DNA of 64,000 nucleotides from Candidatus Dormiibacterota bacterium (GTDB lineage: Bacteria > Chloroflexota > Dormibacteria > Aeolococcales > Aeolococcaceae): NCBI GenBank assembly GCA_003153125.1, contig PLWW01000018.1, positions 2,723 through 66,722 on the forward strand, written 5' to 3'. How positions within the stretch are numbered: the stretch's first letter is position 1; each line of letters opens with the position of its first letter. Both the position numbers and the translations under genes were made by a program. Shown here piece by piece: positions 24,188-55,863 of the stretch. The notes beneath the pieces were generated by a model. It had not been told where the DNA came from. It was given only the letters and a program-made list of their open reading frames with translations, and did no database searches.

Positions 24188-24197
24188 GATGCGCTGA

Positions 24198-25193: not shown

Positions 25194-25631
25194 GTGGACA
25201 CCTCGCCGATCCTGGTTGTCGAAGACGATGACCTGGTCCGAACCTTCCTCTGCCGCGCCCTCGCCGGTCTCGGCGGCGAGGTGGACAGCTGTGGCAACGG
25301 CTCCGATGCGCTGGAGGCTGTGTCGCGTCGCCGTTACGGAGTGGTCCTGCTCGACGGACTCCTGCCCGACATCCATGGCGTCGACCTTGGCAGGAAGCTG
25401 ATCGGCCACGTCAACGGCGCCGGCGCCGGCATCTGCTTTGTGAGCGGCACGCTGCGCCGCCCCACCGCCATGAACAGCGGCGTCAGCGCTCTCCCCAAGC
25501 CGCTGCGGATCGCCGACCTCACCGCCGCCGTCACCGCGCTTCTCGACTGGCACCATGGCCAGGCGGGCGACTCCCCTGCCGACCGCCTGGCCATGCTCGA
25601 CCGGCTCGGCGCCGAACTGCTGGTGGGCTGA
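25194..25631 (+). CDS. Response regulator receiver domain protein (stand-alone CheY-like)
   Basis: ILVVEDDDLVR..., the phospho-acceptor region VVLLDGLLPD and no output domain. Confidence 0.7.
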   Translation: MDTSPILVVEDDDLVRTFLCRALAGLGGEVDSCGNGSDALEAVSRRRYGVVLLDGLLPDIHGVDLGRKLIGHVNGAGAGICFVSGTLRRPTAMNSGVSALPKPLRIADLTAAVTALLDWHHGQAGDSPADRLAMLDRLGAELLVG

Positions 25632-26075: not shown

Positions 26076-27263
26076 TCAGCCCTCGCGGGCCGCCGCGACC
26101 AGCACGCTGGCGACCTCAGGCCGGCTGAACTCGGGAGGAGGCAGTTCGCCGGCAAGCAGCATCTCGCGCACGCGCGTCCCGCTGAGCACCAGGTGGTCCT
26201 CGTCGGGGTGCGGGCAGGTCCTGGTGCTGGCCATGCCCTCGCAGCGATGGCACCAGAAGGTGTGCTCGAACGGCAGGATCTCGATGCCCAGAGCGGTGCG
26301 GTCGATGTTGTCGAAGATGCGCTGGGCGTCGTAGGTGCCGTAGTACTTGCCCACCCCGGCATGGTCGCGGCCGACGATAAAGTGGGTGCAGCCGTAGTTG
26401 CGGCGAACGATGGCGTGGAGCACGGCCTCGCGCGGCCCCGCGTAGCGCATCGCCGCCGGGAAGGTGCCGAGCACCACCCGGTTCTGCGGGTAGTAGCCCT
26501 CGAGGAGGACCTCATAGCAGCGCATGCGCGTGGCCGCCGAGATGTCGTCGCCCTTGGTGTCCCCCACCAATGGCTGAAGGAACAGCCCGTCGATGGACTC
26601 GAGCGCGACCTTGTGGAGGTACTCGTGGGCGCGGTGCACGGGGTTGCGGGTCTGGAACCCGACGATGGTGCGCCAGCCCAACTCCGCGAAACGCCCGCGA
26701 GTCTGGGCGGGCGTGAGGTCGTAGGTGGGAAACGCCGAGGTGGGGATCCGCAGCGCGTGGATCTCGCCGCCGATGGCGTGCGCGCCCTGTGCAAGACGTG
26801 CGGCCACGCCGGGGTGAGCTGAATCGGCGGTGCCGAAGCATGCCTCCACCTCGGCGGCGAGGTCGACGGTGAACACCTCCGACACCACCAGCAACGCCAG
26901 CGGGTCGCCGTCGGTGCCGACCAAGACGACGGTGTCCCCGGCGCGTCTCGCGCGCGCTGTGTCCTCATCTACGGCAAGCACCACGGGCATCGACCAGATC
27001 GAGCCATCGCTGAGCCGCATCGTCCCGCACACGGAATCATGGTCTGCGGACCCGACGAAGCCGGTGAGCGGGCTGAACGCACCCACCGCGATGCAGTGGA
27101 CGTCCGCCTGCTGGCGTGAGTCAAGGGTGATGCGCGGAGCACCGTCAAGCGAGGCAAGACGCCGTGCACCCTCCTCAGGCGACAACAGACGATCGACGAG
27201 CTTGACTGTTGACGTCCGCGCCGCGGCCGGCTCCGACGTCGCGGCGGATGGCTGCGCTGTCAC
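26076..27263 (-). CDS. sat: Sulfate adenylyltransferase (ATP sulfurylase, homo-oligomeric Sat type)
   Basis: Hallmark motifs GFQTRNPVHRAHE, GRDHAGVG and HTFWCHRCEGM, with an N-terminal PUA-like domain. Confidence 0.9.
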   Translation of the reverse strand: MTAQPSAATSEPAAARTSTVKLVDRLLSPEEGARRLASLDGAPRITLDSRQQADVHCIAVGAFSPLTGFVGSADHDSVCGTMRLSDGSIWSMPVVLAVDEDTARARRAGDTVVLVGTDGDPLALLVVSEVFTVDLAAEVEACFGTADSAHPGVAARLAQGAHAIGGEIHALRIPTSAFPTYDLTPAQTRGRFAELGWRTIVGFQTRNPVHRAHEYLHKVALESIDGLFLQPLVGDTKGDDISAATRMRCYEVLLEGYYPQNRVVLGTFPAAMRYAGPREAVLHAIVRRNYGCTHFIVGRDHAGVGKYYGTYDAQRIFDNIDRTALGIEILPFEHTFWCHRCEGMASTRTCPHPDEDHLVLSGTRVREMLLAGELPPPEFSRPEVASVLVAAAREG

Positions 27264-27472
27264 AGTACAGTCACCGCAGAAGATCGCGGCTGCTTGGCTT
27301 GCACACTACACCTCGTGATGAGTCCAACAATGGTGTCCGCAACCGACCGCGTTCGATCGCGCGGACGAGAGGTTGGACAATCCAAGCATCCATTATGTCA
27401 TCCGGCTTTCTTTGTTGGCACTGCGGCTGACGCGTCGTATCGCGCGGCGATCCTTATGCACAACAGTGAATG

Positions 27473-27494
27473 CGGCGACGGCCGGCCGTCGCCG
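27473..27494. promoter_or_regulatory. Perfect 22-bp palindrome in the sat-cysC divergent intergenic region (candidate operator or hairpin)
   Basis: CGGCGACGGCCGGCCGTCGCCG equals its own reverse complement. It lies 72 bp upstream of the cysC ATG and about 210 bp upstream of the sat start, in a locally lower-GC intergenic region. Confidence 0.45.
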
Positions 27495-27565
27495 AGATCA
27501 ATCGATGTAGCATCCACCGCGTCAGGGTGGACCAACGCGTGGCCGCCGTTGATAGGTGGCGCGTC

Positions 27566-28156
27566 ATGAATCAGCAGGGGAGAATCGCGGTGAGCGAAGT
27601 TCGTGGGGTGACCATCTGGTTCACCGGGATGAGCGGCGCGGGCAAGTCGACCATTTCTGAGGGAGTGCTCGGCGAGCTGAGAGCCCGGAGCACGCGCGTG
27701 GAGTTGCTCGACGGCGACCTGGTCCGGCAGAACCTCAGCAAGGGTCTCGGTTTCTCCAAGGAGGACCGCGACATCAACATCCGGCGCATCGGTTTTGTCG
27801 CCGACCTGCTGACCCGCAATGGCGTCACCGTCCTGGTGGCCGCCATCTCGCCGTACCGCGAGGCGCGCGACGAGGTTCGCGCCCAGATCGGCGACTTCCT
27901 CGAGATCCATGTCGCCGCCACGCTCGATACGCTTGTGGACCGTGACGTCAAGGGCCTCTACCGCAAGGCGCTCGCCGGCGAGCTCGCCAACTTCACCGGC
28001 GTCTCCGATCCCTACGAGGCCCCCGCCGACCCTGAGCTGGTGATCCACACCGACCACGAGGACGTGCAACTGTCGATCAAGCGTGTCCTCGACCTTCTCG
28101 ACGACTTCATCGCCGAGCGCGACGGCGACGGCCTGCGCCGGGAGAGCGCCGGCTGA
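27566..28156 (+). CDS. cysC: Adenylyl-sulfate (APS) kinase
   Basis: P-loop GMSGAGKST, the LDGD motif and ISPYREARD, which is the classic APS kinase signature. Divergent from sat. Confidence 0.9.
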   Translation: MNQQGRIAVSEVRGVTIWFTGMSGAGKSTISEGVLGELRARSTRVELLDGDLVRQNLSKGLGFSKEDRDINIRRIGFVADLLTRNGVTVLVAAISPYREARDEVRAQIGDFLEIHVAATLDTLVDRDVKGLYRKALAGELANFTGVSDPYEAPADPELVIHTDHEDVQLSIKRVLDLLDDFIAERDGDGLRRESAG

Positions 28157-28166
28157 GCGCCCTGGG

Positions 28167-29720
28167 TCAGTAGGAACCGCGGGCGGCGATCAGCGCGGGG
28201 ATCGTCTTGGCGAGGATGTAGAGGTCCATGACCACGGACCAGTTCTCCACGTAGAACAGGTCGTACCTCATGTAGTCCTCGAACACCAGTTCGTGCCTGC
28301 CGTTCACCTGCCACAGCCCGGTGAGGCCGGGCTTGACGCGCAGCCGCTGCAAGAAGCGCTCGTCGTAGTTCAGCGTCTCCTGGGGCAGCGCAGGCCGGGG
28401 CCCGACGAGGCTCATGTCGCCGCTGAGGACATTGAATAGCTGCGGGAGCTCGTCGATCGCGAACCGTCGCAGCTGCCGGCCAATCCGGGTCACGCGCGGA
28501 TCGGCCCGCATCTTGAAGAGGAGCCCGTCGGCCTCGTTCTGGTCGTGGAGCTGGTGGCGGAGATCCTCGGCGTTGACCACCATGGTGCGGAATTTGCACA
28601 TCATGAAGGTGCGGCCTTCGGCGCCCACCCGCTCCTGGCGGAAGAGCACGGGGCCCCTGCTGGTGAGGCGGACCAGTGCGCCGATGACCAGCATCGGCAC
28701 GGCGGCGACCACCAGCATCGCGGAGGCGATGGTCACGTCGAGGACCCGCTTGAGGAACCGCGCCCGCGACGAGAAGCGCTGGCGGCGCAGCGAGAAGAGC
28801 GCCATCCCGTCGAGCGGCTCGACGACGGCGCGCGACGCCGCGAGGTTGGTGAGGCCCGACGACACCCGCACGGAGATGTCGGTGCCGGCCAGGGCGGTGT
28901 CGATCTGCTGGAGCATGCCGCCGCCGACGGCGCTGCCGGCGATGATCACGATCCGCGCGTCGAGACGCTCCGCGACCTCCCCGATCGTGTCGACCGTGCC
29001 CAGAACGGCGAGTCCGTCGACCGTGGTCACGCCCGCATTGGTGACCTCGATGAAGCCACGGACGTCGTATCCCAGCCAGCGTCGCCGCGCAAGTGTCCGC
29101 GCCATCGCTCGGGCCTCGTCATTGCAGCCCACGATGATGGTGGGCTGGCTGGTGATGAAGCGGGCGTTGAGAGCGTGGTTGATGCGCCGCACCAGCATCC
29201 GGCCGCCGATCGTGGTCGCCAGTGATACGGCCAGCAGAGAGGCGATGAAGCTGCGCGAGATGTTGAGCTTGGCGCCGAACGCGACCAGCACGACCACGAG
29301 CACAGAGAAGATGACTGCGTGGAAGAGCTGGCGCATCTCCGCGGTGACGTGGGTGGAGCGGCGGAAGTCGTAGAGGCCGTAGACGCCGAAGATGACCGGC
29401 CACGCCGCAACCGTCAGGAAGAGCGTCGAGTCGATCGGGTCGAGCAGGTCCGTGCCGAGGTTCAGGTGGCTGTGGATCCCCTTGGCGGCGAGGTATGCCA
29501 CCAGGACCGCGAGCACGTCGACGACCACCGTGAGCACCAGGAGCCCGAACATCCAGCGATGGCGATGCGCATGGCGTTCCGCGCCCGCCGGGGCGGCCGC
29601 GATTCCACCGCCAAGGGCGACCGGGTGACCGACCAGCTCGGCTTGCGAGATGTCGCCCCCTGCCCAGGTATCGGCTTGAACCTGTCCGGGTGTCCCTATC
29701 AGATCGACCACGGCTCCCAC
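28167..29720 (-). CDS. Polyprenyl-phosphate glycosyl-1-phosphate transferase (WbaP/CpsE bacterial sugar transferase, priming enzyme)
   Basis: An N-terminal TM bundle plus the C-terminal catalytic domain ...RVKPGLTGLWQVNGRHELVFEDYMRYDLFYVENWSVVMDLYIL... Confidence 0.85.
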   Translation of the reverse strand: MGAVVDLIGTPGQVQADTWAGGDISQAELVGHPVALGGGIAAAPAGAERHAHRHRWMFGLLVLTVVVDVLAVLVAYLAAKGIHSHLNLGTDLLDPIDSTLFLTVAAWPVIFGVYGLYDFRRSTHVTAEMRQLFHAVIFSVLVVVLVAFGAKLNISRSFIASLLAVSLATTIGGRMLVRRINHALNARFITSQPTIIVGCNDEARAMARTLARRRWLGYDVRGFIEVTNAGVTTVDGLAVLGTVDTIGEVAERLDARIVIIAGSAVGGGMLQQIDTALAGTDISVRVSSGLTNLAASRAVVEPLDGMALFSLRRQRFSSRARFLKRVLDVTIASAMLVVAAVPMLVIGALVRLTSRGPVLFRQERVGAEGRTFMMCKFRTMVVNAEDLRHQLHDQNEADGLLFKMRADPRVTRIGRQLRRFAIDELPQLFNVLSGDMSLVGPRPALPQETLNYDERFLQRLRVKPGLTGLWQVNGRHELVFEDYMRYDLFYVENWSVVMDLYILAKTIPALIAARGSY

Positions 29721-30190
29721 TCCCCCCTTATCGGTGCTCTGTCACACCCGATCGCGGAAGTGTAACGATGGGTCGGGGACGGTGTCAATGACGCGTCTGG
29801 CGTGGTTGACTGCTTCTTCGCCGTCGCCGGCCGAGCGGTCGCCCGCCGCCGCATCGCGGCCCCCTCCTCTATAGACTGAGGCGACCAGGGACGACCAGGG
29901 ACATGGTGCCGGCGGACGGTACGGGGCTTCCCGGCGGGCTGACCTGATCTTGGGCAGACAGCTTCGACGACCTGGCGGAGACAGACGTCAGCGTACCCGG
30001 CTCCGTATGGCCCGCCCGCGCGCTAGCATCGCATGACCCGATTGATACGTTCGCCGGGATTGGCTTGTTGACAAGGTGGCTCACTTCAGGTCAAACTCTC
30101 GCAACGGCTCCGTCACATCGGGGCGCCGCGGGGGGGAAACCACGCGGGGGAAGGTATTCGGACGCGTCAAAGGGGGTCGCAGACAGGGCT

Positions 30191-31630
30191 ATGCAGGGAT
30201 TCATCTCCAAGTGCTCTGGCGCCGTAGTCGGGATTGCCACTGTTGCTGTCCTGGCGGGCTGCGGCGCGACCATGAACGGCGCTGTCCTGGGCATCCCGCC
30301 GACGAGCGCTCCGGGCGCCGTGCTCAGCGCCACCGATCCCGCGATCGGCGCCTTCCAGCAGAACCTGATCAATGAGTTGAACCTGGTGGCTGCGACCGGC
30401 GGCGCACGCGAGTCCCAGCTGCTCCAGGCGGAGTTCAACGCGCTCGCCAACGACCATTCGTTGATCGGGTTCGAGAAGATCACCGCGCTCCAGAAGTTCG
30501 GCGAGGCGCAGATCGCCAGCCGCGAGCAGTCGATTGCCGCGGACATCTCGACTGTCCAGGCGCTCCAGCACATCGGCGGCGCCCAACGCGCGGCTCTGAT
30601 TTCCAACCTGCAAACCGTCAGCGCACGCCTGTCGGCGCTGGGCGCGCAGATCGCCCAGACGGCCTTCGTCGACATGCTCAGGACCGAGACGCTGTCGATC
30701 GCGACCAGCAGCAACGTGAATGGGACAGTGGAGCCGATCGTGCACCTTGCCTCGGCGGCCGATTCGATGCTGGCCGAAGCGAGCCTGCTCGCTCAGCACG
30801 GTCAGCAGTTCAACGCCGCGATCGTGCAGAACGCGTCAACGGACCCGAACCACGGTCTCGAGGTCGCTGCCTTCCAGGACCTGCAGCGCAGCGTCTCGTC
30901 GATGTCCTACACGGCCAACGCCGCGCTCAACGCGGTGATCCCCCTGGTCCTCGCCCCCGACTCCGTCTCGGTCACCACGATCAACAACGAGCGTTCGCTC
31001 ATGTCGTCGGAACTGGGCTCGTTCGGAGCTCTGACGGGCGCACAGGCCGACATCAACAGCCTCCGCGGTTGGGTGAAGCCGATCGCGGCACCGGCGGCCG
31101 CCGTGGCGCTCCCGGTCGCCATCTGGGGCACGCCTCCGCCGGCGCCGGCGCCCACGCCGGTGGCAACGCCGCTGCCGACACTGCTGCCGACGGCCACGCC
31201 GACGCCTGTGTCCACACCTTTGCCGACACCGGTGCCGACCGCCGCGCCGACACCTGTGCCGACCGCCGCGCCGACACCTGTGCCCACGCCAGTGCCAACA
31301 CCCGTGCCGACGGCGGTGCCAACCGACACGCCGACGCCTGTGCCGGCACCAGCCACCGGAACGCTCAGTGGAACAGTGGCTGACTCGGTCGGTCCGGTCG
31401 TGGGGGCCAGCGTCACCTATACGGGCGTCGTCGACCAACAGAACACCTACACCGTGACCACAGACGTGAACGGGTACTACTACTTCGGCCCGATGCTCGC
31501 GGAGGACTACACAGTCACGGTAACGGGGGCCAATGATGACTCGCAGACGTCGACCGTCACCGTGCCGGCGGGCAGCGCGACGTGGAATTTCACTCTAACC
31601 GCGACGACGCCGTCGCCGTCACCAACTTAG
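30191..31630 (+). CDS. Secreted lipoprotein with a Pro/Thr-rich linker and a C-terminal CarboxypepD_reg-like beta-sandwich domain
   Basis: Lipobox VLAGCGA, a helical N-terminal region, a PTPVPT linker (about 31140-31370) and the terminal domain [21 protein letters not shown]...[18 protein letters not shown]. Confidence 0.6.
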
Positions 31631-31694
31631 ACACCAGGCGGCTACAGACACAGAACAGACAACGGATTTGCCGTTGCAATCAGGGGGGGAAGGG

Positions 31695-32484
31695 GATGAA
31701 CATGAACATGGGCACATGGCTCAGGAAGTCAGGTGGAGTGGCCGCGCTTGGAGGCGCCGGGCTGTTCGCATTTTCGCTCGCGGCGTCGCCAGCACTGGCG
31801 GCGGGCAACCCGAACTTCGACGGCGTGCTCGCCGCATCGAGCCCGACGGGGTTTCCAACAAGCCCGGCTTCGCTGGACGTGTCGTCCGGTCCGGTGAGCC
31901 TGCACTTCGACACGCTGGTCACCAACCTGACCACGGAACACCAGAACGTGGCGCTGAACTTCTCGGTGGACCACATCGTCACGCTCAACGGCGTCAACGT
32001 CGCTGACGGCCAGCCGGGCAAGCCGGGAATCACCTTCAACGGGCCTGCGGGCACCGTCCAGCAGGAGATGGCGGGGCGCCAGTCGTTCACGCTGAGCCTC
32101 AACGCCTCGGAGAAGAACCAGAAGCTGGATCTCACCCGCACCATGTCGGCCTGCGGTTACTACCAGATCGATGTGTGGGCGCCTGAAACCGGCCCGAACG
32201 CTCCTCGCCATCGGGAGACCCTCGCGTCTGGCTTCATTCGCGTTCTTGGCTGCAGCAGCACGCAGCCAACTCCGTCGCCCACGCCCACGAGCAGCGTCCA
32301 GGGCATCACCAGCCCACCCAGCCCCGACGGCGCTGGCGGTGGCGGCGTCCAGGCCGTGACCAGCCCGTCGACTGGCGCTGACATCCTTGGACCCGGAGCG
32401 GGCGGCCTCGCCCTGGTGACCGTCGGACTCGGGCTGGTCGTTGCCGGCGCGCGTCGCAAGAACCTCAAGCGCGAGGCTCCCTGA
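31695..32484 (+). CDS. Cell-surface hypothetical protein with a C-terminal TM anchor and basic tail
   Basis: Shine-Dalgarno GGGGGAAGGGG then ATG. Signal peptide AFSLAASPALAAG. A PT-rich stretch. The C-terminus is ...GLALVTVGLGLVVAGARRKNLKREAP, sorting-signal-like but without a canonical LPXTG. Confidence 0.55.
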
Positions 32485-32490
32485 CCGAAC

Positions 32491-33585
32491 ATGGAAATCA
32501 AGGACTATCTCCGAGCGATTCGACGCTGGTTGTGGATGCCCATCGTTCTGCCCCTCGTCGCCGGGGCGGGAACGGGTGTGCTCCTCCTCAAGCAGCCGCT
32601 GCAGTACCAGGCAGACGCGACCGTCGTCGTCCCCGCCGTGAGCGCCCGTGGGTTCTCGACGAGCGCGGCCGCGCAGTACGTGGCCACCTTCAAGGACGTG
32701 CTGGTCTCCGCGCCACTGGTCTCGGAGGTGTCGAAGGCAACCGGCGTGCCGACCAAGGACCTCGTCAGCGGTCTGACGGCGTCGACGGTCACGGTGTCGA
32801 GCAACATCATCCACGTCACCTACATCGGCTACCAGAAGAACAACGCCAGCAAGGTGGCCGAGCTGGCCACGCGCGACACACTCGACATCGTCGCGCAGCC
32901 CCAGTTGCAGCAGGCCCAGGCGGCGGTCGCCTCATCCTCGGCCCAGCTCAGGGCTGCCGACGACGCCATCAACGCCTTCACCAACAGCAGCGGGCAGGTG
33001 CAGCCTGACGTGGCCTTCCGCACCAAGCAGGCGGAGCTGCTGTCGCTGCAGCTGCAACTGCAGCAGACGCAGATCGCCGGTGACGTGCCGCGTGCAACGC
33101 TTCTGCAGTCGGTCATCACCCAGCGCATCGCGGAGCTGAGCCAGCTGGCCGCGCAGCTCAATCAGTACACCTCGCTGACACAGGCCAGGCAGCAGGCCGT
33201 GACGGTCGCCTCGCACGACCAGCAGCTGCTCGGCGACGCCCAGGCACTCCTGAGCGCCGACCATCTTCCCAACACCGTGACGGTGGCGGATATTGGCAAG
33301 CTCTCCCGCTCCGGCAACATCCTCAAGTTCAGTGCCATCGCGGCGGCCGTCGCCCTGATCATGGCGCTCGCGCTCATCCTTCTCATGGAGCTGATGCGGT
33401 ACCGGCGCCCCGCGGTCGCCGGAAGCGGCGGACAGCTGCTCACTCCTACGACGGCGGGAACGGTGGCGGCACCGCTGACCGCGACTGACGCAGTTCCCAG
33501 CAGCAACGGCGCGCACGTCCACGCGGACGATCCCGATGGCGAGCGCGACCTGGTCACCTCCGCGGGCCCGAAGGCGCGCAGGTAG
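32491..33585 (+). CDS. Wzz-like polysaccharide co-polymerase (chain-length determinant, PCP without a kinase domain)
   Basis: An N-terminal TM, a long Gln/Ala-rich coiled-coil periplasmic region and a second TM near the C-terminus (IAAAVALIMALALILLMEL). Confidence 0.7.
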   Translation: MEIKDYLRAIRRWLWMPIVLPLVAGAGTGVLLLKQPLQYQADATVVVPAVSARGFSTSAAAQYVATFKDVLVSAPLVSEVSKATGVPTKDLVSGLTASTVTVSSNIIHVTYIGYQKNNASKVAELATRDTLDIVAQPQLQQAQAAVASSSAQLRAADDAINAFTNSSGQVQPDVAFRTKQAELLSLQLQLQQTQIAGDVPRATLLQSVITQRIAELSQLAAQLNQYTSLTQARQQAVTVASHDQQLLGDAQALLSADHLPNTVTVADIGKLSRSGNILKFSAIAAAVALIMALALILLMELMRYRRPAVAGSGGQLLTPTTAGTVAAPLTATDAVPSSNGAHVHADDPDGERDLVTSAGPKARR

Positions 33586-33624
33586 TCTCGGATCTCCCCG
33601 CCCGCCCGTCGGGCGGGGAGGATT

Positions 33625-37212: not shown

Positions 37213-37333
37213 TCCCATACAATCAAAGACGAATCGGCGTCCGCCTTCGCGTTCCGCGATGGTCAGGGCTCCGCGGGGAAGGGGAATCACGTGATGCCGG
37301 AAGGCTCTGTCCAATGTACCGGTATGTGATCTG

Positions 37334-38833
37334 ATGGCGACTGTCGTTCAGCCGGCTCGACAGGACGTGGGCTCGCCCATGTCGACGCCGCGAGGTCGCC
37401 TGATCATCGCCATGTGCGCCGTGGTGATCGTGGTGTTGTCCGTCGAAGCCACGGTGGTGGCCGCAACCGGCGGCTCGAAGCTCCTCATGATTGTGCCCAT
37501 CGCGCTTTTTGCGGGGCTCGGTCTCACGCTGCTCGGCGTGGTCAACTTCGAAGGCTTCGTCTATGCCACCATCGTTGTCCGCGCGAGCATGGACATCGTC
37601 AAGACGTCCCCCACCAGCAGCGGCACCGCCGGCGTCAACACCGCTGCGGCCTCGGGTCTCGACCCAGCGGGCGGACTGGCGGTGATATTCATCCTCATGG
37701 CCTTCTTCTGGTACCTGACGCGCAAGCGGGAGGGCCGGGTCGCCCCCCGCGCCTCGATCCATCGTATCTGCCTGATTCTCTTCGCCGGGGCGGGCTACCT
37801 GAGCATCATCGACTCGGCCAGCGTCTCGATCAGTCTGCTCGAGGCGATCCGCGTCACCGCGGTCGTGGTCATGCTCGCCGTTCTCGAAGTTCTACTCGTC
37901 GACCGCGAGAGCATCAAGCGACTTGTCACGGCCATCTACGTCTCAGCGGTGGTGCCGGTCGGGCTGACCATGTTCAACGTGGTCTTTCACCACACACAGT
38001 TCACCAGTGGTGGATTCGATCGCTACCAGGGCACCTTCTCGCAACCCAACCCCTTCGCCATCTACCTGACCATGCTGATTGTGATGGGAGCCGCGCTGTT
38101 CCCCCACCTGACGATCCGCAAGCGTGCGCTGATGGCGTTGCTGCTCATCGGGTGCGTCATCAGCCTGTACTTCACGTACACGCGCAGCGCGTGGATCGCG
38201 GCTGTCATCGGGCTGTTCGCCGTTGCGTACTTCGGCCGCCGCCGCCTGATGCTCGGCATCATGCTGGGAAGCATGCTGCTCTCACTGGTCGCAGTTCCCA
38301 CAATTGCGGCACGCTTCGCCGACCTCGGCCAGGCGACGAACGCCTCTGGCACCGCCTCCAACTCGCTGACTTGGCGCTTCAACTACTGGGGTGAGGTGCT
38401 GCCGCTCGCCAATAAGGATCCCATCACCGGCATCGGCCTGAAGATGAGCTCCTTCGAGACCAGCCAGCAGAAGGAGCCGCACAACGACTTCCTCCGCGCG
38501 TATGTCGAGACCGGGGTGGTGGGCACAGTGGCCTACTTCCTGCTGCTCTTCAGTATGGGAGCGGTGGCCCGGCAGTCATTACGCTTCACCAAGAAGCGTC
38601 ACGGCAGCTACGAGCATTCCATCGCGGTCGGGTTTACCGGGTGCGTGATCGCGTTCGTGCTCATCAGTCTCGTGTCCAACGTGATCAGCGAAGTGATCGT
38701 TCTCTGGTACTACGTCGCGTTCGCAGCGGCGGCGTACGCGGTGACCCAGTACAGGGAGAACGCCATCCTGCGCGGTCTTCCTCCGCCTCCTGACGACGGC
38801 GAGGTTCCCGTCCTCGCGCGTCTCAGCGCCTGA
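37334..38833 (+). CDS. O-antigen ligase/polymerase family membrane protein (Wzy/WaaL-like)
   Basis: A polytopic membrane protein with a large loop carrying ...YTRSAWIAAVIGL... and HNDFLRAYVETG, which are Wzy_C-like motifs. Confidence 0.75.
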   Translation: MATVVQPARQDVGSPMSTPRGRLIIAMCAVVIVVLSVEATVVAATGGSKLLMIVPIALFAGLGLTLLGVVNFEGFVYATIVVRASMDIVKTSPTSSGTAGVNTAAASGLDPAGGLAVIFILMAFFWYLTRKREGRVAPRASIHRICLILFAGAGYLSIIDSASVSISLLEAIRVTAVVVMLAVLEVLLVDRESIKRLVTAIYVSAVVPVGLTMFNVVFHHTQFTSGGFDRYQGTFSQPNPFAIYLTMLIVMGAALFPHLTIRKRALMALLLIGCVISLYFTYTRSAWIAAVIGLFAVAYFGRRRLMLGIMLGSMLLSLVAVPTIAARFADLGQATNASGTASNSLTWRFNYWGEVLPLANKDPITGIGLKMSSFETSQQKEPHNDFLRAYVETGVVGTVAYFLLLFSMGAVARQSLRFTKKRHGSYEHSIAVGFTGCVIAFVLISLVSNVISEVIVLWYYVAFAAAAYAVTQYRENAILRGLPPPPDDGEVPVLARLSA

Positions 38834-38850
38834 CGCGGCTCCGGACCGCC

Positions 38851-40095
38851 GTGAGGATCCTGCACGTCAACAAGTTCCTCTACCGGCGCGGAGGTGCCGA
38901 GGCATACATGGAGGACCTCGCCGACCTCCAGGTCGCTGAAGGTCACACGGTCGCGTTCTTCGGGATGCAGCACCCCAGCAACACCCACCTCGAGTACGCG
39001 CGCCACTTCCCGAGCCACATCGAGATGGAGCCCCCGCCAACCAGCCTGGAGGGCCGCATCCGCGGTGCCGCCCGCATGGTGTACTCGACATCGGCGAGCA
39101 AGGGGATGGACGCGGTCATGGCCGCGTTCAAGCCCGACGTCGTTCACCTCCACAACATCTATCACCAGCTCTCTCCCTCGGTGCTGCGCCCTGTGGCCCG
39201 TCGCCACGTGCCCGCCGTGATGACGCTGCATGACTACAAGCTCGCCTGTCCCACCTACCAGTTCCTCGACCACGGCAGGATCTGCGAGGCGTGTCTCGGC
39301 GGCCGCTTCCACAACGCTGTGCTGCGTCGCTGTAAGGACGGGTCGCTGGCGGCGAGCGCGGCAGCGGCCGGGGAGCTGTTCATCCACACGGCGACGCGCG
39401 CGTACGCGCCGGTGCGGATCTTCGTGTGCCCCAGCCGCTTCATGGCCGACAAGATGGCCGAGGCGAAGGTGTTCCCAGAGCGGCTGCGGCACGTGCCCCA
39501 CTTCATCGACAGCGCAGCCGTGGAGGTGAAGACAACGCCCGGCGGTGCCGTGCTGGTCGCGGGACGCCTGTCTGCGGAGAAGGGGATCGACGTCGCCATC
39601 CGGGCGATCGGCCTCCTCGACGGCGCCACCCTGGACATCGCCGGCACCGGCCCGGAAGAGGCCGGCCTGCGCGCTCTGGCCGAGAGCGCCGCGCCCGGGC
39701 GGGTGCGCTTCCACGGCCTGCTTCCCAAGGAGGGTGTGCATCGCCTCATGCTGAGCGCGGCGGTGGTCGCGGTGCCGTCCCGCTGGTACGAGAACCAGCC
39801 GATGGTCGTGCTCGAGGCCATGGCCCGCGGTCTTCCCGTGGTGGGGAGCGCACTTGGCGGCCTGCCGGAGCTCATCGAGCCGGGCGCAACCGGTGCGCTG
39901 GTGCCTGCCAACGACCCCGCAGCGCTGTCCGCCGCCCTCGCCCCGTTCGTCGCCGACCCTGCGCACGGAATGTCGATGCGCGACCGCGCCCGCGCCCACA
40001 TCGTCAGTGAGTTCTCACCAGAACGTCATCTCGAGCGCATCGACTCCGCCTACCGCGAGGCCGGCGCGCCGATGATGGCGGGCGCGGCGGCGTGA
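38851..40095 (+). CDS. Glycosyltransferase family 4 (GT-B, retaining)
   Basis: MRILHVNKF...GGAE... at the N-terminus and the EX7E motif (ENQPMVVLEAMARGLPVV). Confidence 0.85.
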   Translation: MRILHVNKFLYRRGGAEAYMEDLADLQVAEGHTVAFFGMQHPSNTHLEYARHFPSHIEMEPPPTSLEGRIRGAARMVYSTSASKGMDAVMAAFKPDVVHLHNIYHQLSPSVLRPVARRHVPAVMTLHDYKLACPTYQFLDHGRICEACLGGRFHNAVLRRCKDGSLAASAAAAGELFIHTATRAYAPVRIFVCPSRFMADKMAEAKVFPERLRHVPHFIDSAAVEVKTTPGGAVLVAGRLSAEKGIDVAIRAIGLLDGATLDIAGTGPEEAGLRALAESAAPGRVRFHGLLPKEGVHRLMLSAAVVAVPSRWYENQPMVVLEAMARGLPVVGSALGGLPELIEPGATGALVPANDPAALSAALAPFVADPAHGMSMRDRARAHIVSEFSPERHLERIDSAYREAGAPMMAGAAA

Positions 40096-41234
40096 AGTCC
40101 GCGCGCGTCGCCTTCATCGGTCAGCGCGGCGTCCCCGCAACCATCGGGGGCATCGAGCACCACGTCGAGGAGATCGGCTCGCGGCTGGTGGCGCGGGGCC
40201 ACGAGGTGACCGTGTACACGCGCGGCAACTACACGACCGAGCGCGTCACCGCGCATCGCGGCATGAGGGTGCGCTATGTACCGACCGCGCCCACCAAGCA
40301 CCTCGAGGCGCTCGTGCACAGCGGCCTCTCGACGGCGGCGGCGATGCTGCCGGGCCGCAACGCCGCACAGATCCTCCACTACCACGCCATCGGCCCCTCG
40401 GTGTTCACGCCGCTTCCCCGGCTGCTGTCGCGCCGCCGGGTCGTGCTCACGGTCCACGGCCTCGACTACGACCGCGAGAAATGGGGGCCGGGTGCTCGCA
40501 CCGCACTCCGCACCGCCGGCTGGATCAGCTCGCACGTACCCCACGCAACCATCACGGTTTCTGCCAACCTCGCCGAATACTATCGGGCCCGGTACGGGCG
40601 CGAGGCGGTCCACATTCGCAACGGTGTGACCGCCCCGGTGGTACGCGAGCCGCGGCTGATCACCGAGCGTTGGGGCCTGCGCGGGCGCGACTACGTGCTC
40701 TTCGTGGGACGCCTGGTGCCCGAGAAGGCGCCCGACCTGCTCGTGCGCAGCTTCCGCGACGTGCCCACAGACGCCCGCCTGGTCATCGCCGGGGGCTCCA
40801 GCTTTACCGATGAATACGTCGGCGTGCTCGAGAAGGCCGCGGCAGCCGACCCACGGATCATCCTCGCCGGCTCGGTATACGGCGAGCCCCTGCAGGAGCT
40901 GTACAGCAACGCTGCGGCGTTCGTGCTTCCCTCCAAGCTGGAGGGCCTGCCGCTCACCCTCCTCGAGGCTGCGTCATACCGCGTGCCGCTGATCGCCAGC
41001 GACATCCCACCGCACCGCGAGGTGATCGGCGCCGACGGACCGGGCGGGCGGCTGTTCCACAGTGGTGACGCCCTCGCTCTGCGCGACACCCTGGCGTCAG
41101 TGCTCGGGTCGCTCGACACGGAGCGCGTGGGCGCACGCGCCGTGGGTGACCGCGTGGTCCGTGAATACGACTGGGACCAGGCCACCGACGCAACCGAAGA
41201 GGTGTACGAGCGGTTGCTGGCCGCCGCGCGCTGA
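40092..41234 (+). CDS. Glycosyltransferase family 4 (GT-B)
   Basis: GVPATIGGIEHHVEE..., a C-terminal EX7E-like segment (EGLPLTLLEAASYRVPLIAS). The ATGA overlap with the upstream GT suggests coupling. Confidence 0.85.
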   Translation: MKSARVAFIGQRGVPATIGGIEHHVEEIGSRLVARGHEVTVYTRGNYTTERVTAHRGMRVRYVPTAPTKHLEALVHSGLSTAAAMLPGRNAAQILHYHAIGPSVFTPLPRLLSRRRVVLTVHGLDYDREKWGPGARTALRTAGWISSHVPHATITVSANLAEYYRARYGREAVHIRNGVTAPVVREPRLITERWGLRGRDYVLFVGRLVPEKAPDLLVRSFRDVPTDARLVIAGGSSFTDEYVGVLEKAAAADPRIILAGSVYGEPLQELYSNAAAFVLPSKLEGLPLTLLEAASYRVPLIASDIPPHREVIGADGPGGRLFHSGDALALRDTLASVLGSLDTERVGARAVGDRVVREYDWDQATDATEEVYERLLAAAR

Positions 41235-41333
41235 GTGACGCGCAGCGCGCGGACGGGTCCATCGAGACGCGGCAGGATCCGGCAAACCCCGTGCTACCGT
41301 AGTTTTGTGCTACCCGCAAGAGCTCGACGCGCG

Positions 41334-42425
41334 ATGGATCGGATGGGCGCGGCGGGACGGCTTCTCGTGGTGGCCGCGCTTGTCACGTTGGTGACGGCGT
41401 GCGGCGACTCGCATGCCCTGCAGCCCACTGTCGCCCCGGCGACGCCCACCCCCTTCCCCACCATCAGCGGCAGCCCCACGCCGGCGTCGGACCTCAAGCC
41501 GGCGATCCACGGCCTCGTCGACCGCGACGGCCCGCCCTCGGCGGCCTACCAGGGAGTGGTCAACAACTTCGTTGTCAATGTGCACTGGAGCGACATCCAG
41601 CCGCAGCCGGGTCCGCTCGTGGGGAACAACGCCATCGACCAGGCGATCACGGAGGCCCGCCAGATGAACACCGTCGCCGGACAGCCGCCGGTCGGCATCA
41701 AGATCCGTTTGTACACCGGCGTCTACGCTCCGTCGTGGGCGAAGGCGCTCGGCGGTGGACCGGTGGCGGTGGCGGCCGGCAGCCTGACCGGCACCGTCGG
41801 GCGGTTCTGGACCAATGCCTTCGGCTCCGCGTACGCCGACGTGTGGACGCGCCTCGCCCAGAAGTACGACAGCGTGCCCGAGATCCGCGAGATCACGGTG
41901 TCGCGCTGCATGACCTTCTACGCGGAGACGCTCATCCGCGACACGTCGGACCCGACCACCGGGCAGAACCTGATCAACGCCGGCTTCTCGCTCGACGCGG
42001 ACAGGACCTGCATCACGCAGGAGATCGACCTCGGCTCGGTGTGGCACAAGACGCGGATCGGGATGGCGTTCAACCCCTACGAGGACGTGGTCCCCGGCCT
42101 GCACCTGACCGACGAGGCGTTCACCGAGCAGATGATGCAGTACTGCAGGACCAAGCTCGGCCCGCAGTGCGTCCTCGAGAACAACTCGATCCGCTTCCCG
42201 CCGCAGGCCGGCATGTACGCGCTCATGTACGCGGCGATCACCCGGCTCGGGGCGCCGATCTCGTTCCAGACGGCCACGCTCTCGCGCATCGGCGACCTGA
42301 CCGAGACGCTGAACTGGGCTGTGACGGCCGGCGCGAGTGCCGTGGAACTGCCGGCTGGTTATACAGCGCTGCCGGTGTCCACCCTGGGCGGTCTCGCGGC
42401 GGCGCTCCCGGTGAGCGCGACCTGA
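41334..42425 (+). CDS. Hypothetical lipoprotein (possibly a TIM-barrel glycoside hydrolase-like protein associated with the polysaccharide locus)
   Basis: Lipobox LVTACGDS. The conserved-looking Trp/acidic pattern (WSDIQPQPG, RLYTGVYAPSW, ENNSIRFPP) is suggestive of a glycan-processing enzyme, but no firm family assignment. Confidence 0.5.
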   Translation: MDRMGAAGRLLVVAALVTLVTACGDSHALQPTVAPATPTPFPTISGSPTPASDLKPAIHGLVDRDGPPSAAYQGVVNNFVVNVHWSDIQPQPGPLVGNNAIDQAITEARQMNTVAGQPPVGIKIRLYTGVYAPSWAKALGGGPVAVAAGSLTGTVGRFWTNAFGSAYADVWTRLAQKYDSVPEIREITVSRCMTFYAETLIRDTSDPTTGQNLINAGFSLDADRTCITQEIDLGSVWHKTRIGMAFNPYEDVVPGLHLTDEAFTEQMMQYCRTKLGPQCVLENNSIRFPPQAGMYALMYAAITRLGAPISFQTATLSRIGDLTETLNWAVTAGASAVELPAGYTALPVSTLGGLAAALPVSAT

Positions 42426-42532
42426 GCGATCTCGACGGCTCTGGTGCGCACAGAACGCCGAGCGAGGGCGCAAGCCCCCGCCCGGCGGTTCACACGCGGG
42501 CCGGTCGCGGACCGGTTCGCGAGGCGTGAGGA

Positions 42533-44557
42533 TCAGGCGATGGGACCGAAGCTCCCGGCCAGGTCGCCGTTCACGGCACTCGCGGCTCCGCCGAGGAGAG
42601 CCAGGCCGTAGGCCCGCTCGATGGCGCGCAGCGTGCCGTAGTGGTTGCCACTGGTGGTGACTGCACCCTGGCCCTTGGCGGTGCTGCTGATGACCACGGT
42701 GGGGATCTGGTTGGTGGTGCCTGAGTCGCCCTCGTCCATGGTCACGATGACGGTGGCATTGAAGTTGGTGAACCAGCGCGAGGCGAGCACCGGCGCGAGA
42801 TTGGCCTTCAGCCACGCGTCACCCTGCTGCACGGTACCGTTGTGCATGTCGTCGGTGAGGTTGGGGGTGATCCAGACGAAGCTGGGGTTGCTCGAGTCCA
42901 GTGCCGACGCGATCGAGGTGGCGCCGGGGTACGGCAGCACATGGGCGGCGCAGTCGGTCACTGCAGAGCTGCTCACGAACGGATCGTGCTTCACGACATA
43001 GCCACCGGCGTTGCTCCTGTCGCAGGCTGACGGCATCGACTCCATGTAGGCGGTCCACGAGATGCCGGCCGCGTTCAGCTGGCTGCCCAGGCTGGGAGCA
43101 CCGAAGGCTCCGCAGGTGTCCGAGGTGCACCCCTGGGTGCTGCCACTGGTGAAGGCGAAGTAGTTGGGCTGGCTGGGATGGCCGACGCCGTGCCAGCCGG
43201 TGTAGGTCGCGTACGTCGAGGCGAGGGAGCAGTAGTACGGGTCAGCCGAGCACGTGCCGAGCGTCGCCGCGTAGCCCTTGTTCTCCTCCATCACAACCAT
43301 CACGTGAGGTCTCCCACTCGGGTTTGGCGTGGGAGTCGCGGTTGGGGTGGGGGTCACGGTTGGCGTTGGTGTCGGCGCGGGCGTCGGCGTCGGCCTCGCG
43401 GTCGGCGTCGGGGTCGGCGTGGATGTCGGCGAGGCGGTCGGAGTGGGCGTCGGCGCGGGCGTCGGGGTCGGGTTGGATCCGCTCAGCGGCGCAGAGAGCG
43501 GCACGATCGGGGTTCCGCCCCCGCCGATCGAGGTGGCCGAGTTGTTGTTCACGACATCGAGGTTCTTGAGGATGGTCATGATGTCGTTGGTCCACGGCGT
43601 GCCGCTGACACCGGCGGTCTGGAACGGGAAGCCCCAGGCGCTCTGGAACTGGGCGATCGTCGACTCGCTGCCGGCCTGGGTGTCGATGCTGAAGACGGGG
43701 CGGGCCGTGTCATTGCTGACGTACGCGCCGTAGTGCTGCAACGCCTGTGCCAGGATCAGCCCGGGGCCGGAGAGGCCGAGGGTGGATAGGTCGAGGCTGG
43801 CGGGCAGCGCCAGCAGGGCTCCCATCTTCAACGCGGGGTTGCTGCCACCGTAGCGGGTGGAGCCGTAGCGATCCTCGCGGGTTGCCGGCCAGCGGAAGCC
43901 GCCCGGACCGGCCATGAGGTCGACCTCGCCGTCGATGTTGACGCGCAGCGCGTGGTTGATCGCGCCGCCGGGCACGAGCTCATTGACGCGCAGCACACCG
44001 CCGAGCGTGGAGAGGCCGGAGCCGCCGGCGCCACCGGTGAGGCCGTCACCCGCAATCGAGCCGAAGGCCTTGGCGGACCCGACCGTGGGGGGCGACCCGG
44101 GAGAGCAGCGCGCAAAGGCGCCGCCCTCAACGAGCGTTGTCCCGTCAGCGGCGATGAACGCGTAGCCATTATTGGACGAGGACGATGGCACCACCAACGA
44201 CGTCGGAACGGGCACCAGCGCGACGGGCGTGCCGGCGGTGCAGCGGTTCGAGTGCTGGCCGCCGTTCTTGCTGATCATCGTCGCCGGCGCAGCGGGGTCC
44301 ATGAGGATCACTGTCTGGTCGGGAGTCAGCGCACGGATCGTCGGTGGCGCGATCCTCGCAGCGACGTACATCGCGTTGCTGCCGATGGGCTGGTTCCAGA
44401 TCGACGTGTTCGAGAAGGGCTGCGTGTATGCGTCGCGTCCGTTGCCGGATGCAAGGCCGGTGTTGGCAACCGCCACCGACGGGTGTGACTGCGCGAATGC
44501 CGCGGCCAGGACGAGCGTCGCCGCAAGCGAGATGAACGAGGCACAGCGTCGGATCAT
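42533..44557 (-). CDS. Secreted two-domain protein: N-terminal about 340-aa unknown domain, a PT linker and a C-terminal phosphoesterase-like domain (paralog family member A)
   Basis: Signal peptide [22 protein letters not shown]. The N-terminal domain ([10 protein letters not shown]...[14 protein letters not shown]) is homologous to the C-terminal domain of the 55864-59949 protein. The PTPTP linker is at about 43320-43480. The C-terminal domain has [12 protein letters not shown]...[11 protein letters not shown]...NLTDDMHNG...VIVTMDEGD motifs. Confidence 0.7.
43320..43480. repeat. Low-complexity Pro/Thr-coding linker (PTPTP)n in paralog A
   Basis: GGNGTNGG/CGNCGG-rich simple sequence on the plus strand encodes [47 protein letters not shown]. 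Similar linkers occur at about 31140-31370, 48900-49020 and 56650-56770. Confidence 0.8.
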
Positions 44558-44903
44558 GTCTGATCCCCTTGTGATGGCAAACGCATACCTAAGAGGAGCG
44601 TCACCGAAAGTTCTGAGTCGGCCCCGGTGTCCAGTGGCTCATCCCGGCTCGACTCAGAACTACTGGTGATGTCACGTGCGGCGGCGTTTGCCGTTGTTCG
44701 ACCTGCGATGCAGTCTGCGAGCCCACTGACGCGATCGATCGCAACGTCGGGTGTCCCGTGACGTCCTCGTTACCGGTATCCGATTGCTCGTCATACCGTC
44801 ACAAGGCGCGGCATCACACATGCCGCCGTGGCTCACCGTCACGCGCCTCGCGTGTCTGTGTGTGCGGAGCGCGCAGCGGCGCGCTACACGCGCAAGCGTT
44901 CCG

Positions 44904-45842
44904 TCAGCCCGTGGATGCTGGCGTGGAGAGTGTTGTGTACTGCAGCGAACGCAGGCGAGTCGCCAGACTGTCCTCCAGGAGCGCGACGCTGGCAGGGTCG
45001 AGGTCGCGGCGGAAACCGTCGACGCGTGATGCCTCGAACGGGTACTGCGCGAACGCTCGTTCGAATTCGTCCGTCCAGCGTAGTCCGCTGAAATCGAGGA
45101 TGTCGCCGATGTGCTTGCGCGGTTCGGCCACCACGTCCTCGTACCTCACACGCAGCCACTGCGACGACGGGACCTGCGTCCGTGCGGTGTCGTACGCATC
45201 GATGAGCAGCTTCCAGCCGAGCCCGGCGAGGGTCACGAACGAGTTGCCGGATGCCTCCCACTCCTCGGCGTACGCCGGCGGCAGCGGCCCGAGGTGCCAC
45301 GCGCCGGGTCCGCGGTAGCCCTGCCACCACCCCATCTGCAGCCACGAGTTGGCAACCGCCCTGCCGTCACGCACCACCTCGACGAACCGGGCGTCGGGGA
45401 AGGCCGCGTGGAGCAGACCGGTACGGGGCCAGCCCGTGAAGTGGTGGACGAATGCAGGCCGGTTCTGCGCCGCCATGCGGCGCTCGAAGAACCCCTGCAG
45501 GCGTCCACTGAGCCAGGGGGTGCAGTCGGCGGCGACCAGGTCGCGGAAGGGCGTGGAGATGATCGGTGACACCTGGCGGTCGAGGATGCTCCACGCCTCC
45601 GAGGGAGCGATGCGGAAGCGGCCGAACTCGATGAGCCGGCGGCGGTCGCGGAACGGACGCATGCGCGGATCGCGCGGGGCCGACAGACGGTGCAGGCCGT
45701 TGTTCCACCGGCCGGCCATGTTCAGGTAGGTCAGCTTGTCGTCGAAGTTGGACACGAAGCCGACGTCGCGGTGGCGGCTGACGACCTCGACGATGGGGGT
45801 TGAGCCGCAGCGACCCGTGCCGATGAAGAAGACGAGCATCAC
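44904..45842 (-). CDS. Sulfotransferase family protein (PAPS-dependent)
   Basis: 5'-PSB loop FFIGTGRCGSTPI with a sulfotransferase-fold pattern. It lies 22 bp downstream of paralog B and is co-oriented with it. Confidence 0.8.
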   Translation of the reverse strand: MMLVFFIGTGRCGSTPIVEVVSRHRDVGFVSNFDDKLTYLNMAGRWNNGLHRLSAPRDPRMRPFRDRRRLIEFGRFRIAPSEAWSILDRQVSPIISTPFRDLVAADCTPWLSGRLQGFFERRMAAQNRPAFVHHFTGWPRTGLLHAAFPDARFVEVVRDGRAVANSWLQMGWWQGYRGPGAWHLGPLPPAYAEEWEASGNSFVTLAGLGWKLLIDAYDTARTQVPSSQWLRVRYEDVVAEPRKHIGDILDFSGLRWTDEFERAFAQYPFEASRVDGFRRDLDPASVALLEDSLATRLRSLQYTTLSTPASTG

Positions 45843-55827: not shown

Positions 55828-55863
55828 ACCTGACCGGCAAACGGTGATGCGGCGGCAGGCAAC

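Follow-up and report, generated by a model that had tools for sequence, protein, structure and literature searches.

Does the 64-kb stretch of contig PLWW01000018.1 from a Candidatus Dormiibacterota bacterium (the window; 68% G+C) encode the synthesis of a sulfated surface glycan, and are the sulfate-activation genes that it carries dedicated to that product? The original prediction proposed a system in which sat and cysC, encoding an ATP sulfurylase together with an adenosine 5'-phosphosulfate (APS) kinase, supply 3'-phosphoadenosine 5'-phosphosulfate (PAPS) to three sulfotransferase modules embedded in a Wzx/Wzy-type glycan locus. Genes in the window were called by third-position GC (GC3) and then tested with profile hidden Markov models (HMMs) from Pfam and from NCBIfam with its curated cut-offs; the synteny scan of genomes used one genome per species. 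Judged from its genes, the locus is probably a Wzx/Wzy-type pathway for a sulfated surface glycan, and all of the in-silico tests that were run support a candidate system with built-in sulfotransferases and an adjacent PAPS supply. The sat and cysC genes, primer, Wzz-like protein, flippase, Wzy-like protein, two GT4 glycosyltransferases and sulfotransferases were all recovered by HMM at, or within a few bases of, their predicted positions (Table 1).

The tandem sulfotransferase is encoded by a longest open reading frame at 33536–35566 (plus strand), in which Pfam identifies Sulfotransfer_3 at residues 40–275 and Sulfotransfer_1 at residues 429–630. The two domains originally placed at 33625–35566 are therefore present, but the start is more likely ATG 33635, which is the most likely initiation codon because homologues contain 638–643 residues and a ribosome-binding-site (RBS)-like GGGGAGGA lies 12 nt upstream. 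The protein is laid out as domain d1 (residues 1–315) and domain d2 (residues ~385–640), with a disordered linker and helices between them. In an alignment of 14 homologues (46–79% identity), the motifs GTGRSGST and RDPRxxAxSW of d1 and QRSGTNM and RDVDGRxRS of d2 are invariant, and a PDB profile search aligns them with the 5'-phosphosulfate-binding (5'-PSB) and 3'-phosphate-binding (3'-PB) loops of the OLS/CurM sulfotransferases and TPST2 (PDB codes 4gox, 4gbm and 3ap1). The invariant Glu34 of d1 aligns to the ELH motif of the OLS/CurM sulfotransferases, where their catalytic glutamate lies. The protein is predicted to have a sulfotransferase fold: the AlphaFold2 (AF2) model has a predicted local distance difference test score (pLDDT) of 77.9, and nearly all of the Foldseek matches of this model at E≤0.02 are PAPS- or PAP-binding proteins of this fold, the listed PDB matches being CurM, TPST1/2, 3-OST, Stf1, NDST1 and retinol dehydratase. 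The full tandem architecture is rare, with ~12 representatives among 1.84 billion clustered proteins, some of them with reversed domain order, while each domain alone belongs to a large family.

A separate feature of d1 is an invariant C-G-C-G...C motif (Cys49, Cys51 and Cys58; residues 49–58), found in all 14 aligned homologues and not a feature of the matched solved sulfotransferases; it could be a metal or disulfide site.

The further, single-domain sulfotransferase (ST3) was also borne out by its Pfam match. Its motifs GTGRCGST and VVRDGRAVANSW align to TPST2, and its 3'-PB segment reads VRDGRAVANSW, corresponding to the same loops as in 3ap1/TPST2. Orthologues of ST3 are 51–78% identical in Dormibacterota and 52% identical in Micromonospora. 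Pairwise identity among d1, d2 and ST3 is at most 27%, with ST3 forming a third subfamily, which argues for three specificities. Sulfotransfer_1/3 models match all three modules, and the 5'-PSB and 3'-PB motifs, the loss of which would have spoken against the assignment, are kept in each. No transmembrane (TM) segment or signal peptide was found in either the tandem protein or ST3. Both are thus predicted to be soluble and cytoplasmic, which fits action in the compartment where PAPS is made, and their predicted activity is sulfate transfer from PAPS to carbohydrate.

The sat and cysC genes form a divergent pair with a 206-bp spacer, as predicted, and both products score above their NCBIfam cut-offs. 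Sat reaches 507.8 bits with NF003166 (cut-off 387) and retains the QTRNP, HRAH and GRD motifs; it would convert sulfate and ATP to APS. A promoter-like site for sat is located at 27421–27392. CysC reaches 266.3 bits with NF002059 (cut-off 244), retains the P-loop GMSGAGKS and the LDGDLVR motif, and would convert APS to PAPS; its true start is possibly ATG 27566, as homologues have 185 residues. Since the catalytic motifs are intact, Sat and CysC can be expected to make PAPS.

The glycan assembly set, described as complete-looking in the original prediction (primer, polysaccharide co-polymerase (PCP), MurJ/MOP flippase, Wzy-like protein and two GT4s), was found in full, with a sub-threshold Wzz match; the genes for the Wzz-like protein, the flippase and the Wzy_C protein share one operon-like block. 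The priming phosphoglycosyl transferase (PGT) scores 405.6 bits with TIGR03025 (cut-off 295.55), has multiple TM segments, and is 57–72% identical across most Dormibacterota loci and 47–50% identical in three. The Wzz-like protein has TM segments at residues 14–32 and 280–298 that flank a coiled extracytoplasmic domain of ~250 residues, and it has no kinase domain; its orthologues bear a precomputed 'Wzz (weak)' match. The flippase gene directly follows the tandem sulfotransferase gene in nearly all Dormibacterota loci and in several Actinomycetota loci, and the protein scores 201.8 bits with TIGR01695, below the equivalog cut-off of 235.55. The MurJ-like protein therefore appears to be a cluster-specific flippase, and a role as the housekeeping lipid II flippase was rejected on the same two grounds. 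The Wzy_C protein, 60–82% identical across Dormibacterota and without a match in a PDB sequence search, is most likely the repeat-unit polymerase; a ligase or an O-oligosaccharyltransferase is possible. The first GT4 (GT4a), whose PDB relatives are retaining GT4 enzymes, is 72–86% identical in most Dormibacterota loci, 58–60% in two divergent ones and 54–58% in Micromonosporaceae; the second (GT4b) is 69–81% identical in most Dormibacterota loci and 57–60% in two divergent ones.

A second Wzx-like flippase (Polysacc_synt, 4626–6131, minus strand) is located elsewhere in the window, beside a YkuD L,D-transpeptidase with a Big_10 domain (3315–4601, plus strand); a rhodanese gene lies at 2395–3315.

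Comparison of gene neighborhoods showed that the block PGT-unkA-unkB-Wzz-ST(d1d2)-MurJ-Wzy-GT4-GT4 (ST, sulfotransferase; unkA and unkB are described below) is syntenic in ~35 Dormibacterota genomes, with parts of it in Actinomycetota, and that each Dormibacterota locus has 3–4 sulfotransferase domains where the contig spans the whole locus. The best matches come from Candidatus Dormibacterota: the proteins of contig DAISRJ010000020.1 are 94–99% identical to those of the window, the 1.87-Mb contig CAWKKS010000001.1 shares the sat-cysC-PGT arrangement, and the tandem sulfotransferase is 79% identical to its counterpart in Candidatus Aeolococcus gillhamiae. Hypervariability is the norm for Wzy and flippase genes of capsule and O-antigen loci. 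In the distant loci L023, L027, L028 and L042, GT4a and GT4b are 74–76%, Wzy 63–67% and the sulfotransferase 64–65% identical to those of the window, and Sat and CysC are 55–59% identical. The assembly enzymes are thus more conserved across the class than Sat and CysC, which argues for a structurally fixed product; by these comparisons, an envelope polyanion of fixed structure is more likely than a variable capsule.

In the cultured Actinomycetota Micromonospora and Phytohabitans, d1-, d2- and ST3-type genes are separate and interleaved with GT4, Wzx, Wzz-like and Wzy genes. For example, Micromonospora wenchangensis CCTCC AA 2012002 (L080, 6561–19854) has orthologues of d2 (60% identity) and ST3 (52% identity) and a separate d1-like gene. 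This cluster comprises ST3-like, d1-like and d2-like genes and one more sulfotransferase gene, together with GT4s, Wzz-like, Wzy_C and Wzx genes. Similar Micromonosporaceae clusters with three or four sulfotransferase genes are found in L076, L077, L079 and L081, and Micromonospora antibiotica MMS20-R2-23 is a further culturable carrier.

In the proposed pathway, PGT and the two GT4s would build a lipid-linked unit of ~3 sugars. Still linked to polyprenyl diphosphate, the unit would receive up to three sulfates at the cytoplasmic face, and the MurJ-like protein would then flip it. The Wzy_C protein would polymerize the units, with chain length set by the Wzz-like protein, and the polymer would be retained on, or released from, a monoderm-type envelope, as no outer membrane polysaccharide export (OPX) component was found. 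The lipoprotein unkC may trim or release the chain.

Several observations weigh against this pathway or against parts of it. The Wzz-like protein scores 21.5 bits with Pfam Wzz, below the cut-off of 25.5, and the Wzy_C domain is common to polymerases, ligases and O-oligosaccharyltransferases. Nucleotide-sugar synthesis genes, an LCP-type wall ligase and an OPX/export component are absent from the gene calls scanned in the window. For the nearest solved sulfotransferase structures, the acceptor is a polyketide intermediate or a protein tyrosine rather than a sugar. The host is uncultured. The remaining points concern the PAPS supply. The nearest distinct orthologues of Sat (77–78% identity) and CysC (73% identity), in two other Dormibacterota assemblies, lie in cysH-cysC-sir-sat operons followed by an ABC transporter (L082, 4061–8344; L084, 6780–11173), so that sat and cysC cannot be taken as dedicated to sulfation. 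Moreover, sat and cysC adjoin the glycan locus in only a minority of the syntenic loci.

The alternative that survives best is built on these last points: sat and cysC would be a general sulfate-activation module that also serves assimilation, their position at the locus would be a lineage-specific rearrangement, and the sulfotransferases would draw on a common PAPS pool. This is quite possible, although not the favored explanation. Most of the syntenic glycan loci lack sat and cysC within 10 kb, and among 29 background Sat loci, retrieved from metagenome contigs with widely conserved Sat peptide patterns, 19 are cysH-linked; these background loci are more distant relatives (52–61% identity) and are not specific to Dormibacterota. 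None of the same 29 loci has a sulfotransferase, PGT or GT4a gene within 10 kb. In contrast, within Dormibacterota the sat-cysC pair is a neighbor of the glycan locus in two gene orders that differ from each other, and two Actinomycetota contigs have the pair beside related loci, which makes two phyla. Additionally, the operon-linked CysH carries a CC...CxxC motif and ECG[IM]H. The CC...CxxC motif marks Fe-S APS reductases, as opposed to PAPS reductases. Assimilation would therefore bypass PAPS, leaving CysC without an obvious assimilatory role and needed for sulfation. A survey that found PAPSS-type genes mainly in Dormibacteraeota reported that sulfite reductase is absent there (bioRxiv 10.1101/2021.08.23.457424), which also argues against a general module; the sir genes in the L082 and L084 operons show that this absence is not universal.

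No PAPS_reduct (cysH) or NIR_SIR domain was detected among the gene calls scanned across the window, so that the claim that sat and cysC are unlinked to cysH and sulfite reductase stands within these 64 kb. The further step, that they consequently feed sulfation rather than assimilation, is too strong for Sat and is arguably justified only for CysC. CysC is probably the sulfation-specific step, whereas Sat, with orthologues inside assimilation operons, may also feed assimilation; that Sat is shared in this way is plausible, if somewhat less so than the opposite. The absence of a cysH neighbor does not by itself prove that sat and cysC are a dedicated supply for sulfation.

A second alternative accepts the sulfated glycan and changes its destination. 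The Wzy_C protein would be an O-oligosaccharyltransferase of the PglL/TfpM/WsaB kind, transferring a sulfated oligosaccharide to the Pro/Thr linkers of nearby secreted proteins and producing an S-layer-like or surface glycoprotein. The Wzy_C family does include such enzymes, TfpM is the only named NCBIfam match, and a glycan made by only three transferases would be short. Candidate acceptors are also at hand: unkA, unkB, the phosphoesterase-family proteins PE1 and PE2, the 47468–50200 protein and the giant proteins at 50110–59949 are predicted to be secreted or membrane-anchored, most of them have Pro/Thr- or Ser/Pro-rich linkers, and unkA has a faint NCBIfam match to an S-layer glycoprotein family. 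However, with 20.8 bits (E 1.6e-4) the TfpM match stays far below the family cut-off of 600. The Wzz-like gene is kept beside the Wzy_C gene in both Dormibacterota and Actinomycetota loci, which fits polymerization, and unkA and unkB are missing from the actinomycete loci examined. Secreted proteins of these lineages, moreover, generally have Pro/Thr linkers. A glycoprotein system is therefore unlikely, and the polymer pathway is preferred. Least probable, and very unlikely, is that the sulfotransferases modify something other than the glycan, such as tyrosine in proteins or peptides, a lipid or a small metabolite, and leave the glycan unsulfated: their best sequence and structure matches are tyrosylprotein and polyketide synthase-associated sulfotransferases and no close relative was found among characterized carbohydrate sulfotransferases, but these matches are remote (12–18% identity), reflect the common fold and also include heparan-sulfate 3-OST and NDST, while the tandem gene lies between co-polymerase and flippase in nearly all loci, Micromonospora has its d1-, d2- and ST3-type genes interspersed among GT4, Wzx and Wzy genes, and the proteins are predicted to reside in the cytoplasm, where lipid-linked repeat units are constructed.

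The original prediction also held that a locus of this kind would be unusual, a view that is now dated, since clusters with sulfotransferase and PAPS genes have been described in Synechocystis (PMC8205485) and Vibrio (PMC11641403) and predicted in Actinoplanes (PMC13390465). The genes for synechan in Synechocystis sp. PCC 6803 form the Wzx/Wzy cluster xss, which encodes two sulfotransferases and has a product chemically verified as sulfated (PMC8205485). Like the window, whose Wzy and PCP are putative, xss combines flippase, Wzy, PCP and primer with embedded sulfotransferases of distinct subfamilies, and sulfation of the repeat unit before export has been proposed for it (PMC8205485), as it is here. 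The xss host is a diderm cyanobacterium, and the cluster is plasmid-borne with a separate OPX, in contrast to the window, where no OPX was found. It has eight glycosyltransferases and two sulfotransferases (8 sugars to 2 sulfates), compared with three transferases and three or four sulfotransferase domains in the window. It contains neither a fused sulfotransferase nor PAPS genes, both of which the window has, and it encodes the regulators XssQ/R/S, whereas the window has only a lone receiver domain (25194–25631).

The wps-1 cluster of the Gram-positive Actinoplanes missouriensis encodes a Wzx/Wzy/Wzz system that includes two sulfotransferases and has a sulfate adenylyltransferase/APS-kinase gene, AMIS_7390, next to it (PMC13390465, 2026). 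The wps-1 genes and AMIS_7390 are all needed for sporangium formation, and a sulfated product is predicted (PMC13390465). It resembles the window in its Terrabacteria host, its sulfotransferases and the adjacent sat/APS-kinase gene, and it encodes a glycoside hydrolase. The two differ in enzyme content: wps-1 has GT2, GT26, GH26, a methyltransferase and a kinase-like protein, whereas the window has two GT4s, a predicted TIM-barrel lipoprotein outside any Pfam or NCBIfam family and a MurJ-type flippase. Each wps-1 sulfotransferase has a single domain, in contrast to the fused protein of the window. The lipoprotein unkC has no GH26 match, and the wps-1-type enzyme set was not encountered in the window. 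Orthology of the window cluster with wps-1 or wps-3 was rejected on gene content. The Micromonospora and Phytohabitans loci that are homologous to the window likewise differ in content from the published wps-1 and wps-3, and the Micromonosporaceae cluster is apparently undescribed. A literature search combining Dormibacterota with sulfotransferase found no paper.

For the capsule of Vibrio sp. KMM 8419, PAPS genes and sulfotransferases within the polysaccharide locus have been proposed as a hallmark of sulfated polysaccharide synthesis, with chemical verification (PMC11641403). This Vibrio (PMC11641403) and Cobetia marina (PMC11766843), for both of which the product structure has been solved, resemble the window in having extra PAPS-gene copies and several sulfotransferases within the locus. 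Both are Gram-negative, use ABC-transporter (Kps) export and a CysDN sulfurylase, and are strain-variable, in contrast to the Wzy route, Sat and class-wide conservation of the window.

In Mycobacterium tuberculosis, which has the Fe-S APS reductase CysH, CysNC and Stf0-3, APS kinase only makes PAPS for sulfation. Its Sulfotransfer_3-type enzymes sulfate envelope glycoconjugates, the acceptors being trehalose lipids and menaquinone rather than a Wzy-polymerized glycan, and they are not clustered with a glycan-assembly operon. The likeness to the window is that CysC would exist for sulfation, with assimilation proceeding via APS. The sulfated-glycan cluster type is thus already known, and the window works like the known ones and belongs to a different cluster family. 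What is unusual is the fused two-domain sulfotransferase, a number of sulfotransferase modules that equals or exceeds that of sugar transferases, the MurJ-type flippase and conservation throughout the class.

Three further predicted extracytoplasmic proteins belong to the region (Table 1), and NCBIfam provided no named match for unkA, unkB and unkC, for the sulfotransferases, the Wzz-like protein or the phosphoesterases. The likely start of unkA is near 30191; in the protein, a Pro/Thr linker joins a helical domain to a CarboxypepD_reg β-sandwich, and it is 27–44% identical to proteins at the same position in relatives. The likely start of unkB is near 31696; behind its signal peptide, a β-rich domain is followed by a Pro/Thr linker and, at the C-terminus, by a TM segment, and the protein is 40–57% identical in relatives, again at the same position. 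The C-terminus of unkB reads SPSTGADILGPGAGG, followed by a TM helix and RRKNLKREAP (tail RRKNLKR), a layout that resembles a sortase/exosortase-type sorting signal without LPXTG. The family of unkC has >170 'hypothetical' members, and neither Pfam nor a PDB search with the family profile gave a match. Its AF2 model (pLDDT 87.8) has its best Foldseek PDB matches in GH42, GH5 and GH10 (clan GH-A; TM-scores of ~0.35–0.5) and also matches non-hydrolase TIM barrels, namely old yellow enzymes and sugar isomerases. In Actinomycetota loci unkC co-occurs with the tandem sulfotransferase, and the model makes it a candidate glycoside-hydrolase-like enzyme for trimming or release of the polymer; hydrolases of this sort are frequent in exopolysaccharide (EPS) gene clusters.

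The stem-loop between the Wzz-like and tandem sulfotransferase genes has a minimum free energy of -31.2 kcal/mol (z -2.86), and none of 200 shuffled sequences was equally stable. The same spacer was examined in L001, L004, L005, L015, L017, L026 and L035. There the closer relatives are predicted to form a long GC-rich stem that differs in sequence, and the folds predicted for more remote loci are weaker. The element may be an intra-operon attenuator or an mRNA-stability element. An Rfam scan of the whole window at gathering thresholds matched zero RNA families.

On the far side of sat, the receiver gene recurs near sat only in the near-identical locus L004. A formyltransferase-like gene (24198–25175, plus strand) adjoins the receiver gene and sat; it matches Formyl_trans_N only, below the Fmt cut-off, and could encode a sugar N-formyltransferase. 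Of the long open reading frame that overlaps it (22079–24901, minus strand), only the C-terminal portion encoding isocitrate dehydrogenase (~22079–23200) is real.

At least 10 loci preserve the ST3-PE2 pair; PE1, whose membership in the system is uncertain, is found in close relatives only. At least six PF04185 'Phosphoesterase' (PLC/AcpA-like) paralogues are located within 22 kb: 42533–44557 (-), 45865–47085 (-), 50110–55827 (+), 55864–59949 (+), 59984–62944 (-) and 62712–63998 (+). Two of them are giant surface proteins, one of 1905 residues with 10 CarboxypepD_reg repeats and TIG domains and one of 1361 residues with five repeats. The paralogues may serve in phosphate scavenging or have the glycan as their substrate. 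Small minus-strand open reading frames at 50–59 kb were rejected as ribosomal or other small genes, being antisense shadows of the giant plus-strand genes. The open reading frame 47468–50200 (minus strand) is a real gene despite the absence of a Pfam match and poor GC3; its start is likely near residue 134, and the protein combines a TM anchor and a Thr/Pro linker with a β-propeller-like domain. In L001 and L002 the cluster is followed by genes whose products show weak PQQ/NHL-like matches.

Table 1. Positions of the predicted components of the sulfated-glycan locus and its neighbors in the window.
Feature	Coordinates	Strand	Basis
Stand-alone response-regulator receiver adjoining sat, possible regulator, membership uncertain	25194-25631	+	Pfam Response_reg E 1.5e-12
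sat, ATP sulfurylase, homo-oligomeric	26076-27263	-	Pfam ATP-sulfurylase + PUA_2, E 1.9e-97
cysC, APS kinase	27470-28156	+	Pfam APS_kinase, E 2e-56
Priming polyprenyl-phosphate hexose-1-phosphate transferase (WbaP/WcaJ-like large PGT)	28167-29720	-	Bac_transf + CoA_binding_3
unkA, predicted lipoprotein (lipobox LAGC)	30065-31630	+	Sequence, hydropathy; Pfam CarboxypepD_reg E 2e-9
unkB, predicted secreted protein	31582-32484	+	Sequence; no Pfam match
Wzz-like co-polymerase	32491-33585	+	Pfam Wzz E 3e-4, topology, conserved position
GC-rich stem-loop between PCP stop and sulfotransferase start, covering RBS-like GGGGAGGA	33593-33622	+	Predicted fold
Tandem two-domain PAPS-dependent sulfotransferase (d1d2)	33635-35566	+	Pfam, motifs, AF2 fold
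MurJ-family MOP flippase (Wzx role)	35554-37212	+	Pfam MurJ E 1.5e-56, ~13 TM
Wzy_C-domain membrane protein	37334-38833	+	Pfam Wzy_C E 2e-21, ~12 TM
GT4 glycosyltransferase a (putative second sugar)	38851-40095	+	Pfam Glycos_transf_1 / Glyco_transf_4
GT4 glycosyltransferase b (putative third sugar)	40092-41234	+	Pfam
unkC, predicted lipoprotein-anchored extracytoplasmic TIM barrel (lipobox VTAC)	41334-42425	+	AF2 + Foldseek
PE1, secreted; N-terminal domain, Pro/Thr linker, PF04185 phosphoesterase	42533-44557	-	Pfam E 6.7e-25
ST3, single-domain PAPS-dependent sulfotransferase	44904-45842	-	Sulfotransfer_3 E 4.8e-19
PE2, membrane-anchored PF04185 phosphoesterase-family protein	45865-47085	-	Pfam E 1.9e-26

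For a long time, bacteria other than cyanobacteria were believed to lack sulfated polysaccharides almost entirely. Such polymers are now rare but documented, and the present locus would extend them to a new phylum and to culturable Micromonospora relatives, in which the homologous cluster makes the prediction experimentally testable. A wider proposal, doubtful at this stage, is that Dormibacteria and some Actinomycetota, including Micromonospora, share an old, fixed pathway to a polysulfated, short-repeat, heparin-like glycan with ~1 sulfate per sugar, in which the fused d1-d2 protein would install two regiospecific sulfates on the lipid-linked unit. Such a glycan would be the core phosphate-free envelope polyanion of the whole class, with a teichoic-acid-like role and a function in retaining water and cations in dry, nutrient-poor soils. 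With three to four sulfotransferase modules for three sugar transferases, the product would be expected to carry an unusually high density of charge, a property of interest for desiccation tolerance, for the binding of metals and for making glycosaminoglycan-like materials in microbes. If true, the finding would widen the known range of bacterial sulfated polysaccharides to an uncultured, globally distributed soil lineage, and it would be among the first concrete predictions about the cell surface of Dormibacterota.

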